Positions 9,001 to 11,505 of a stretch of 23,198 nucleotides of DNA are shown here, piece by piece. Origin of the DNA: a virus. Its lineage: Duplodnaviria; Heunggongvirae; Uroviricota; Caudoviricetes. The stretch spans positions 1 to 23,198 of IMG/VR virus record IMGVR_UViG_648276650_000002, one strand, 5' to 3'. A program made the position numbers. The stretch's first letter is position 1, and every line of letters starts with the position of its first letter.

Positions 9001-11505
9001 CCAACGCAACGAGGTATTAAAATGGATCGCCTAATTAGAGAAATGTCGTATCTCTTTACCAAGCAGCGTTTTATGGAGCTTCAGGAAACGGCAAAAGACA
9101 TCGCAATCGGTCATAGTGATTTTCCTGAGTGTTTCGGTCTTATTGCTGACGCCATCGCTGAATTTGTTGAAGACACTCCTGATGATGAGTGGCGAGAGCA
9201 TGAAAAAATCCTTATGCACTACGTTGCTATGCGTGTTCTGACGCTGTGGGGTAACGGCGATAAAGTGACTGATGTCCAGTGGGCGCACCCTGGCTGGTTT
9301 GGCACTGCTGAAAAGGGGGAAACCATTCAATGAAGTTGGAAGCATCACTAAAACACTTTAGCCCTCAGGGTGTGCACATCAGCGACGACGTGAAAGGAAC
9401 CTCTCCGGACCGCCTTACAGGAACAGATGTAATGGCGGCAATTGGCACCACCAGCAGCCGTGCGCGCTTCGGACTGGCGGCGTTCTTCGGTAAAGCGGGA
9501 ATCAGCAAAACGGATGAACAGCTCGCAGTTCAGGCGCTGGCGCGATATGCGATGGATGTCGCACCGAAGAATGTTCGCAAAGCAGCTGGTGGGCAGTTCG
9601 GATGGTGCATGCAGATGTTGGCACAATTTGCCTTTGCTGATTATTCACGTTCGGCGGCTACAAGCGTGACGTGTCACAGCTGCAGTGGTACCGGACGAAC
9701 AACCCGCGAACAGATTACCCGCAAGGTTTCGTACCCATGGGGTAAAGCTCCATACTGGGCCTGCCGCTCTCGTGCTGTTCGACCGTCTGACTGGGAGCAG
9801 TGGATGGAGGTAACAGAGGTTGTACCGGCGGTCTGTGATGCTTGCGAAGGCAAGGGAACGATCAGCGCCCGTTGTCGTTGCGGCGGTAAAGGCGAGGTTC
9901 TAGACCGCAAGGCCACAAGCGAGCGCGGCGCGCCGGTGTTTAAAACCTGCGAGCGCTGCAGCGGAAATGGATTTTCTGCGGTGCCGTCTACCGCAGCCTA
10001 TAAAGTGATACTGAAGCGCGTTCCGGATCTGCACGTCAGAACATGGACTCGCAACTGGAAACCGTTTCTTGAGGCGCTGGTAAGCATTTGTCAGCAGGAG
10101 GAGGGAAACGCCGCAAGAGAATTTCAATCTGCAACCAGTTTAGGCGAAGAAGGTGACGAAATTTAGCATTATTACGACATAAGGCTTGATTTTGTCCGAA
10201 GTTGTCGTGTATGCTTCTAATCATGCGGAGTAACGCCTGAAAGATTTCAACAATAAGCCCCTTGCGGGGCTTTTTTATGGCAGCGAGTTAACGAAAGAAC
10301 TGAAAAGGGCCTTATCTTTATTGCTAATTGATTTTTTCAAATGTAGTTGATGATTTAAAGGTTTAAAGTTTTCCTTTGTGAGATATATACATGCTTTCTC
10401 AAAACGATCCTGAAGGAATTGAAATCTTTCATTCAGCCTGGAAACTTTTAATCCTAATGACATGACCTTCTTCTCAGGAATATCGTCAGGATTGCAATTA
10501 TTGAGTTCTTCCAGCACAAGGCGAATATCTCTTTCGAAGATTGGCGCTATGTTATAATCGTTGAGGAGGCATTCAGGATTACGAACAATGCCAATTACTT
10601 CGTCGATGAATTGTGGTTTTACATTATCCTCAGCATTTTCATCTTCGTTATCGGAAGGTTTTTGAGACATAACATTCGACAACTGCATTTCTTCCTTGGT
10701 TTTCCTTCTGGGAAGTAAAACTTTTCCATCTCCTAAAGCAGCCATACGTTTCAAAGCTTGACTCCCGGCTCGGCCAACTACTTTAGAATCTCTTAAATCT
10801 AAAATTTTATGTGCGACCCATTCTAATGATGGTTCACTGGCTTCGATTTTGGCTTTTGCTTGGTAATGGAGAAAAATATTTTTCTTGGCTTCCTTGAGGG
10901 CTGTTAGATATCTGTGGAAATTTGCCTTTTTCTCGAGGTCAGTGGCTAGGTTTTCAAATGCTATACCGAAGACTTTTGTACCGCAAACGTGACCCAGGTT
11001 CGTCTCCAGACCATCCTCAGTAAGAACAAGAAACCCTTTTTTATGGCCTGTTCGACAGCTCGACTTGCCACACGGGATTTCTTCCGGGAGGTCATCATAA
11101 TAACCAAAAACATCGGATAATTGTTGATCGGTCAGTTCCAGCCTGGAATGATAGCTTTCCCGAGCTTGAATTTCTGTCCAGTCATTAATGCGATCAAAGC
11201 TATTGCCGTTTTTAATAAAAATCATATCTTCCCTTGCTCTGGTTAGATTGAAAGCACTGCCGCTTGATATTTAACCATTTCCCTGATTGTTTTTCATCAT
11301 AAAACCATATTATTGCAAGGGTAGTTTTACCTATGTATCTTCTTGCTCCCGGCCCTTTAGCTCAGTTGGTTAGAGCGTGCGACTCATAATCGCCCGGTCG
11401 CTGGTTCAAGTCCAGCAAGGGCCACCAGACCGCCACTAGCTCATCGGGAAGAGCGGCAACCCAGGTGTTGTGGTACGGGGTTCGAGGCTCCGGTGGCGGA
11501 CCACT

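Follow-up and report, generated by a model that had tools for sequence, protein, structure and literature searches.

Why would a prophage carry, within its array of tRNA genes, a gene that keeps everything of a tRNA except a usable anticodon? The question is raised by a tRNA-like element of 74 nucleotides (nt), encoded CCA included, at positions 11430-11503 on the plus strand of IMG/VR virus record IMGVR_UViG_648276650_000002. The element is referred to below as X, its form here, with the loop CCAGGT, as the window-type allele, and the whole stretch of DNA that was analysed (23,198 nt, a lambdoid prophage) as the window. X is more than a product of chance, as the same 74-mer or close relatives of it are present in about 140 loci with the cloverleaf kept. 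Comparison of these sequences inclines us to the view that X encodes a tRNA-like RNA with no decoding function and belongs to a conserved family built on the scaffold of the phage tRNA-Arg argN.

A cloverleaf with an abnormal anticodon arm

By reading, X can be divided into CCGCCAC TA GCTC ATCGGGAA GAGC G GCAAC CCAGGT GTTGT GGTA CGGGG TTCGAGG CTCCG GTGGCGG A CCA. The 5' strand of the acceptor stem (CCGCCAC, 11430-11436) forms seven Watson-Crick pairs with GTGGCGG at 11493-11499; the segment that starts with this 3' strand (11493-11503) is completed by the discriminator base A at 11500 and the encoded CCA at 11501-11503. The D arm (11439-11454) has a stem of 4 base pairs (bp), GCTC/GAGC, closing the 8-nt loop ATCGGGAA, and A14, G18, G19 and A21 are kept. 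The T arm (11476-11492) consists of a 5-bp stem with one G.U pair and the loop TTCGAGG, and it is preceded by a 4-nt variable loop, GGTA (11472-11475). It is in the anticodon arm (11456-11471) that X departs from the rule: the 5-bp stem GCAAC/GTTGT, in which 27:43 is a G.U pair, closes a loop of only 6 nt, CCAGGT (11461-11466), and U33 is absent. All of these parts are on the plus strand. The cloverleaf and the tertiary-contact bases of a tRNA (U8, A14, G18G19, T54-A58) are therefore all found in X, but the 5-bp stem with a 7-nt loop bearing U33 and a purine at 37 is not. The original prediction, made from the sequence alone, had described a 74-nt element between tRNA-Ile2 and tRNA-Thr with good acceptor, D and T arms and CCA, which could not form a canonical 5-bp/7-nt anticodon arm and had CCAGGT as a 6-nt loop; the parse bears it out in every detail.

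Gene finders agree with this reading, in that none returned a standard tRNA with a canonical arm. ARAGORN reports X as tRNA-???, with a two-base anticodon (ag), which corresponds to a 6-membered loop. The Rfam tRNA model RF00005 gave zero match on 11430-11503, either at its gathering score (29 bits) or at E<=10, and it was likewise silent on relatives of X in five other loci; the three tRNA neighbours of X in the array score 65-74 bits with the same model. PGAP leaves an identical copy of X in E. coli FAM21845 without annotation. Assignment to another known RNA family was considered and rejected, as permissive Rfam searches gave only chance-level matches, to YrlA (15.9 bits) and c-di-GMP-II (14.1 bits). 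The minimum free energy fold of the single sequence contains no cloverleaf and is not significant (z = -0.95), as is usual for unmodified tRNA sequences. A covariance model of the family, R1, scores X at 96.6 bits, but X is itself in the training alignment of that model.

Short loops on a conserved body

A 20-nt 5' pattern served to retrieve relatives of X from a set with a single genome for each species; for IMG/VR, a 25-nt 5' pattern and, separately, a 17-nt T-arm pattern were used. Together with annotated records, these scans gave 144 occurrences and 66 unique variants across the Enterobacteriaceae (Escherichia, Enterobacter, Citrobacter, Salmonella, Buttiauxella, Dryocola, Pluralibacter, Yokenella, Cedecea, Kluyvera and others). 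The subfamily to which the window belongs comprises 42 unique sequences, 30 with a 6-nt loop and 12 with a 5-nt loop. Its 33 distinct loops are carried on 21 near-identical bodies; one body has 7 loops and another has 5. The scaffold of the subfamily can be written CCGCCAY / TA / GCTC-ATCRGGAA-GAGC / RCAAC or ACGAC with GTTGT / AGTA or GGTA / CGRGG-TTCGAGG-CYYCG / RTGGCGG-N-CCA (R, purine; Y, pyrimidine; N, any base), and X fits every segment of it as well as having the free 5-6-nt loop. The exact 74-mer of the window was found in 18 fetched loci (L002, from E. coli FAM21845, and IMG/VR contigs), and a variant with the loop CCAGAT in three.

It is clear that the short loop is the norm of this family. 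The 25-nt 5' pattern alone recovered 82 unique sequences, 78 of which keep the 3' half (at least 25 of 32 positions identical to the window). Among these 78, position 26 and the anticodon arm together span 16 nt in 18, 17 nt in 38 and 8 or 21-27 nt in 21, and the canonical 18 nt were seen once. Reciprocal retrieval with the T-arm pattern recovered 5' halves that were intact. In the 6-nt loops position 1 is C in 28 of 30, position 5 is a purine in all 30, T predominates at position 6 and positions 2-4 vary freely, a pattern that looks like C32-NNN-R37-N38 without U33. Members of the family are labelled Ser, Phe, Leu, Pro or ??? by ARAGORN and are passed over by PGAP. A scaffold CCGCCAY...RTGGYGG-N-CCA is common to X, to argN and to the tRNA-Lys and tRNA-Thr alleles described below, and since X has this scaffold in common with argN it can be counted as a member of the argN family. 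Alignment with homologous clusters, which had been proposed with the original prediction, thus places X in a widespread short-loop family that is homologous to argN.

The two parts of the element differ greatly in their rate of change. Pairwise differences per site amount to 0.52 in the loop and to 0.44 and 0.28 in the 2-nt spacers that flank X, compared with 0.031 in the body, so that loop and body differ more than 12-fold in conservation; the 3' portion of the body, which lies outside the retrieval pattern, gives 0.037. Since the rate of the loop is about that of the spacers, the loop appears to be unconstrained and not driven to diversify. Diversifying selection on the loop was rejected on this ground, lack of constraint being the simpler explanation. 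In the variable columns of the stems there are 12 transition state-pairs and no transversions, and all of the changes preserve pairing; the loop columns have 10 transitions and 18 transversions. Standard pairs occupy 97.5% of the cells in a 50-sequence alignment; sliding the 3' partners lowers this share to 32-54%. Double-sided changes are seen at 7:66 (C-G/U-A), 27:43, 30:40 and 52:62, the last of these, in the T stem, being found as G-C, G.U and A-U, and the D stem is invariant in 50 of 50 aligned variants. RNAalifold predicts the cloverleaf unaided from the family alignment. Furthermore, 60 unique elements that were retrieved without use of the 3' region all end in CCA and have an almost invariant T loop. 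Base 73 in the same 60 is A in 39, T in 19, C in one and G in one. The best reading of these comparisons is that the body of the element, and not its anticodon, is under selection.

Two more specific ideas about the loop were tried and rejected. A kissing-loop partner in cis is not indicated, because reverse complements of the 6-nt loops number 36 within 3 kb on either side, as against 32.8 +- 5.5 with permuted loops. A tRNA-Pro identity was suggested by C1:G72, A73 and the GG of the window's loop, but base 73 and the loop both vary across the family.

Genomic contexts, alternative explanations and a possible role

The conservation of X does not follow that of its surroundings. The mean identity of the bodies is 95% in the 515 locus pairs in which less than 10% of the flanks can be aligned, and the proteins encoded near the X loci vary widely (Q, 34-100% identity; endolysins, 30-74%). 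The arrays themselves are arranged as Ile2-X-Thr-Gly, Ile2-X-Gly, X-Gly, Ile2-Arg-X, Ile2-X-Thr-Arg-Gly or X alone, with the order Ile2-X in most. Solitary chromosomal copies are found between core genes in Dryocola, Pluralibacter and Enterobacter. Their neighbours, named from translations only, are presumably ttcA and a porin gene in Dryocola, ydiY and thrS in Pluralibacter and yciA and yciB in Enterobacter, and another Enterobacter copy lies just past what we take to be icd.

Loci in which the rest of the array has decayed were also found. Three metagenome-derived phage contigs of IMG/VR (L083, with X at 12909-12982 as oriented, L088 and L097) have the window-type X with 0 changes in 74 positions. 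In these the tRNA-Thr has 11 changes in 76 positions, broken stems and ACA in place of CCA, and the tRNA-Gly is badly degraded. The tRNA-Ile2 of L083 has 10 changes in 77 and a replaced 5' acceptor strand; that of L097 aligns in the same way as that of L083, and L088 begins just upstream of X. Such loci are consistent with selection on X alone. Relatives of X that have themselves decayed are known as well: L166 and L015 have deletions, L008 an IS1 insertion and L049 stem mismatches, and L020 and L135 are chimeras with other tRNAs. These differ in kind from X, all of whose stems are intact.

Of 5426 E. coli genomes, 5192 carry a chromosomal relative with 81.7% identity to X, which lies immediately upstream of yahM as annotated and overlaps its start. 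This yahM-proximal element is 81 nt long (L005:1502-1582 in an E. coli K-12 derivative; also in L006, L026, L030, L032, L050, L053, L057, L062 and L066) and is identical at 81 of 81 positions in E. coli K-12, E. albertii, E. whittamii, E. ruysiae and Escherichia sp. E1V33. Its flanks are far less similar: there are 15-17 differences in the 100 nt upstream, and beyond these, as well as downstream, the DNA can no longer be aligned. In all five the element adjoins yahN (92-95% protein identity), whereas in species other than E. coli yahL and yahM are absent or present as fragments. A promoter-like site, TTGACA-16-CATAAT, is kept in the five species around 88 nt upstream of the element. The conserved block of about 200 nt beside yahN looks, from its sequence, like an independent gene. 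ARAGORN calls the element tRNA-Ser(GGA) with odd geometry, and neither PGAP nor Rfam reports it.

The original prediction had allowed that X might be a decaying tRNA. As a pseudogene, X would be an argN-type tRNA that has lost one loop base and drifts, its body being conserved only by virtue of a young, fast-spreading module. This would fit with the fact that no finder accepts X as a normal tRNA, with the rarity of the window-type allele (4 of 5426 complete E. coli genomes at an identity of at least 99%), with the decayed relatives listed above and with the close relationship of the family sequences. A young module, however, cannot hold 33 near-saturated loop variants on near-identical bodies, nor is drift expected to change stems by pair-preserving transitions only; the canonical arm length was seen in just 1 of 78 relatives, the Escherichia copy is identical across species between flanks that are 15% diverged or unalignable, and X is intact beside broken canonical neighbours. 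The marks of a pseudogene, namely spread substitutions, broken stems and a lack of conservation above that of neutral neighbours, are not seen in X. Decay is thus an unlikely explanation, and this part of the prediction finds no support in the comparison; the alternative that it offered, a tRNA-like RNA with a non-decoding role, is the one that the comparative sequence data favour.

Alternatively, X might act as DNA, by anchoring recombination between phage modules or by serving as an attachment site for an integrase, without any RNA being made. tRNA genes are classic integration sites, and some of the chromosomal copies lie at what we take, from translations, to be known prophage sites, such as icd and ttcA. 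The chromosomal copies border variable DNA, which is unalignable straight past the CCA, and joints of the phage mosaic adjoin the array. The constraint, however, tracks the pairing of an RNA, with pair-keeping transitions and compensatory changes, and it extends over all 74-81 nt, which is more than a 3' core. No integrase was found beside the solitary copies examined, and in the window X is around 10 kb from the minus-strand open reading frame (ORF) at 313-1485 (390 amino acids) that is an integrase by guess only. A purely DNA-level role consequently seems improbable.

A role in cis, in which X is a tRNA-shaped spacer that serves as an entry site for RNase P and so aids the maturation or stability of its neighbours, also appears rather improbable. 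X lies 1-3 nt from its neighbours and nearly always past tRNA-Ile2, and only the body, the part that RNase P recognises, is conserved, as such a role would suggest. On the other hand, the neighbouring tRNAs have RNase P determinants of their own, X persists without a tRNA neighbour in several prophages and chromosomes, and the Escherichia copy has its own promoter-like site.

It is also necessary to ask whether X could still be read as a tRNA by the ribosome and the synthetases, and here the case rests on established rules of tRNA structure and identity. With a 6-nt loop of arbitrary sequence and no U33, X would present no normal anticodon; the putative anticodons of the family include ANN and stop-reading triplets. 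Since copies that are identical in all else differ at the anticodon positions and at base 73, charging by one specific synthetase is unlikely. An unusual working decoder, whether of doublets or by -1 frameshifting through the 6-nt loop, of quadruplets through a 4-bp stem and 8-nt loop, or as a nuclease-resistant replacement tRNA, is very hard to credit: phage tRNAs with altered anticodon arms can still decode and rescue cells from nucleases (PMC12445682, PMC11464382) and sister alleles that share its scaffold pass as tRNA-Lys, Thr and Arg, but the putative anticodon of X differs in almost every lineage on a constant body, the 8-nt register (C-CCAGGT-G) has neither U33 nor purine 37 as a frameshift suppressor would, the variation of base 73 means that no single amino-acid identity is maintained, and there is no conserved anticodon to match a targeted host tRNA, as an anti-defence replacement would have. 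X probably does not read codons, to judge by these comparisons.

If X is the gene of a non-decoding tRNA-like RNA, how might that RNA be made and act? X would be co-transcribed with the prophage tRNA array, and RNase P and 3' exonucleases would release it like its neighbours, since its acceptor stem, its D and T arms, the bases for tertiary contacts and the encoded CCA are all retained. The product would be an L-shaped RNA of 74 nt. Because the acceptor stem, the elbow and the CCA are conserved, it can be argued that the RNA is made, processed as a tRNA and active through proteins that recognise tRNA shape. The activity would then reside in the tRNA-shaped body; our preferred guess is a mimic occupying a protein that binds tRNAs regardless of anticodon, and examples could be a decoy for a tRNA-targeting toxin or defence enzyme, or a regulator of a tRNA-handling enzyme. 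By analogy such a mimic or decoy role is plausible. More tentatively, X may represent an undescribed and widely conserved class of anticodon-independent tRNA mimics in the Enterobacteriaceae, borne by prophages and domesticated on chromosomes (as in the yahN copy of K-12), that would act in trans on a tRNA-binding protein.

Several points weigh against this interpretation. The effective number of sequences in the alignment is 1.46, so that the covariation rests on few events, and the count of double-sided pair changes is not above that in shuffles (268/500). Retrieval with exact patterns overlooks any copy in which the pattern region itself is degraded, which means that the decayed fraction is underestimated. 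In L083, nucleotides 31-77 of the tRNA-Ile2 are also identical, and the intact X of that locus may thus belong to a recent recombination patch. A scan for sigma-70 promoters gave no convincing site upstream of 11351, its sole match lying inside the Thr/Gly junction. Finally, known anticodon nucleases read the loop or a CNG motif of the stem (PMC12445682), and X, which is without these, would be a poor decoy for such enzymes.

The array in the window and comparison with known systems

The array of the window has the order Ile2-X-Thr-Gly, lies on the plus strand between the Q antiterminator gene and the lysis genes, and has gaps of 2-3 nt. The tRNA-Ile2 (CAT), the usual upstream neighbour of X, is at 11351-11427 (ARAGORN Met-cat; Rfam 69.2 bits; PGAP tRNA-Ile), and X starts 2 nt past it. 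After another 2 nt comes the tRNA-Thr (TGT) at 11506-11581 (Rfam 73.8 bits), and then the tRNA-Gly (TCC) at 11585-11659, called by ARAGORN and scored at 64.9 bits by Rfam. At 100% identity to the host tRNA-Thr(UGU) of 5419 out of 5426 E. coli genomes, the tRNA-Thr of the array duplicates the host gene and is no nuclease-resistant variant. The window also has genes for a replication protein and a primase-helicase, the Q antiterminator gene at 9330-10166, and holin, lysozyme and Rz genes at 12468-13703. From the annotated prophage of E. coli FAM21845, which has the array, Q and a 316-amino-acid ORF in common with the window, we infer the terminase, portal and capsid region. This prophage (L002), the closest E. 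coli relative of the window, has two lysis cassettes, at 8401-9669 and 13177-14535, that flank Q and the array, an arrangement that points to a composite or tandem prophage; upstream of Q it is organised differently from the window.

Some other features were noted around the array. An STnc100-type RNA at 11878-12070 on the plus strand (Rfam 71.7 bits) ends in an intrinsic terminator (12040-12059) and lies a short distance upstream of the holin gene. The RNA is probably a late-promoter leader, and if so the tRNA array is upstream of the late operon and not inside it. The 316-amino-acid ORF is on the minus strand at 10275-11225, between Q and the array; it belongs to phrog_7003 (unknown function) and is present in 11 other loci, two of which have a different X loop (L145 and L155). 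A second minus-strand ORF, of 204 amino acids at 14225-14839, lies past the lysis genes and belongs to phrog_5483 (unknown function). It has an RNDLAH motif (Rx4H, HEPN-like) at residues 95-100 and weak PADLOC matches to CARF_HEPN (E 0.004), from which its product may be a prophage RNase. Its single-sequence AlphaFold model is all-helical and unreliable (predicted local distance difference test score, pLDDT, 42), and the ORF was not found in the other fetched X loci, where the flanks are limited. Both ORFs were considered as a linked protein partner of X and set aside, as neither has a match in Pfam, NCBIfam or PDB.

The nearest canonical relatives of X occupy the same slot. In Stx2 phages the slot directly past tRNA-Ile2 of the lambdoid array is filled by argN (in the array ileZ-argN-argO), a tRNA-Arg(UCG). 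At around 75% identity to X, argN has the acceptor stem CCGCCAY/RTGGCGG, the D stem GCTC/GAGC, the T-loop sequence TTCGAG and the encoded CCA. It differs in its anticodon loop, which is canonical (7 nt, CTTCGAA, with U33 and A37), in its D loop (9 nt) and variable loop (5 nt) and in its anticodon stem, and it is accepted as a tRNA by ARAGORN and in record annotations. About 500 E. coli genomes, together with several phages, have in the slot after Ile2 a 77-nt tRNA-Lys(UUU) instead, with the loop CCTTTAA, as called by PGAP and ARAGORN, and in strain CE0026a it holds a tRNA-Thr(UGU) whose loop, CCTGTAA, is one base from the Lys allele. This one-base switch of anticodon on a single scaffold can be followed at L001:1588-1664, L003:1588-1664 and L007:1502-1578. 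The Lys and Thr alleles (for example in SLK172, PhiR47_1 and CE0026a) resemble X in slot, in the array Ile2-X-Thr-Gly and at about 80% identity, and the neighbouring tRNAs of their arrays are 95-100% identical to those of the window. Unlike X, they have 7-nt loops, with C33 in place of the near-universal U33, and are annotated as tRNAs by PGAP; the T stem has an A.C mismatch where X has G.U. As in argN, their D loop is 9 nt and their variable loop 5 nt. In some Lys-type and argN alleles the 3' acceptor strand is GTGGTGG or ATGGTGG, giving G3.U70 (L009:1502-1578, L011:1502-1577, L013:1502-1578), which is the main alanine identity element.

The yahM-proximal element is the closest parallel on the chromosome. 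It has the same variable loop and T arm as X (GGTACGGGGTTCGAGGC) and the loop core CAACC.AGG.TGTTGT, and like X it is non-canonical. It differs from X in its length of 81 nt, with extra bases on both sides of a 5-bp anticodon stem and a 7-nt loop, CAGGATT (by eye, a 7-bp bulged stem can be drawn), and in being chromosomal and solitary with its own promoter-like site. The question raised by X is directly testable in E. coli K-12, and the pattern is a surprising one for genomes so well studied. In the literature, of which coverage was incomplete, neither the family nor short-loop phage tRNA-like genes nor the yahM-proximal element were found described. Genes of this type are systematically overlooked or mislabelled by tRNA finders and Rfam, which affects tRNA counts in the annotation of prophages and genomes.

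Prophage and host systems are known that attack tRNAs and are countered by phage tRNAs, such as P2-OLD (PMC12445682), PARIS (PMC11464382) and HepS (PMC13043305). A phage tRNA-Thr(UGU) with a shorter anticodon stem evades P2-OLD (PMC12445682), and the tRNA-Lys of T5 evades PARIS (PMC11464382). X is comparable to these in being phage-borne with an altered anticodon arm, in an array that holds a tRNA-Thr(UGU). The nuclease-evading tRNAs, however, keep a defined anticodon and decode, and the Thr of the window's array is identical to that of the host. Phage tRNA genes are now read mainly as a supply for codon usage or as replacements for nuclease-cut tRNAs, and both of these uses need an anticodon; a family that keeps all of the tRNA except a usable anticodon, in phages as well as in the Escherichia core genome, points to a third use of the tRNA fold.

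YrlA's tRNA-like domain has been proposed to be a competitive inhibitor of an anticodon nuclease (PMC7790460). RNAs of the YrlA type are unrelated to X in sequence, the 15.9-bit Rfam match to YrlA being a partial one that spans the T arm of X and the next tRNA. No such tRNA-shaped RNA is known to have a short anticodon loop that varies freely on a fixed body. What X would have in common with YrlA and with other non-decoding RNAs of this shape is the use of the tRNA fold outside ordinary decoding.

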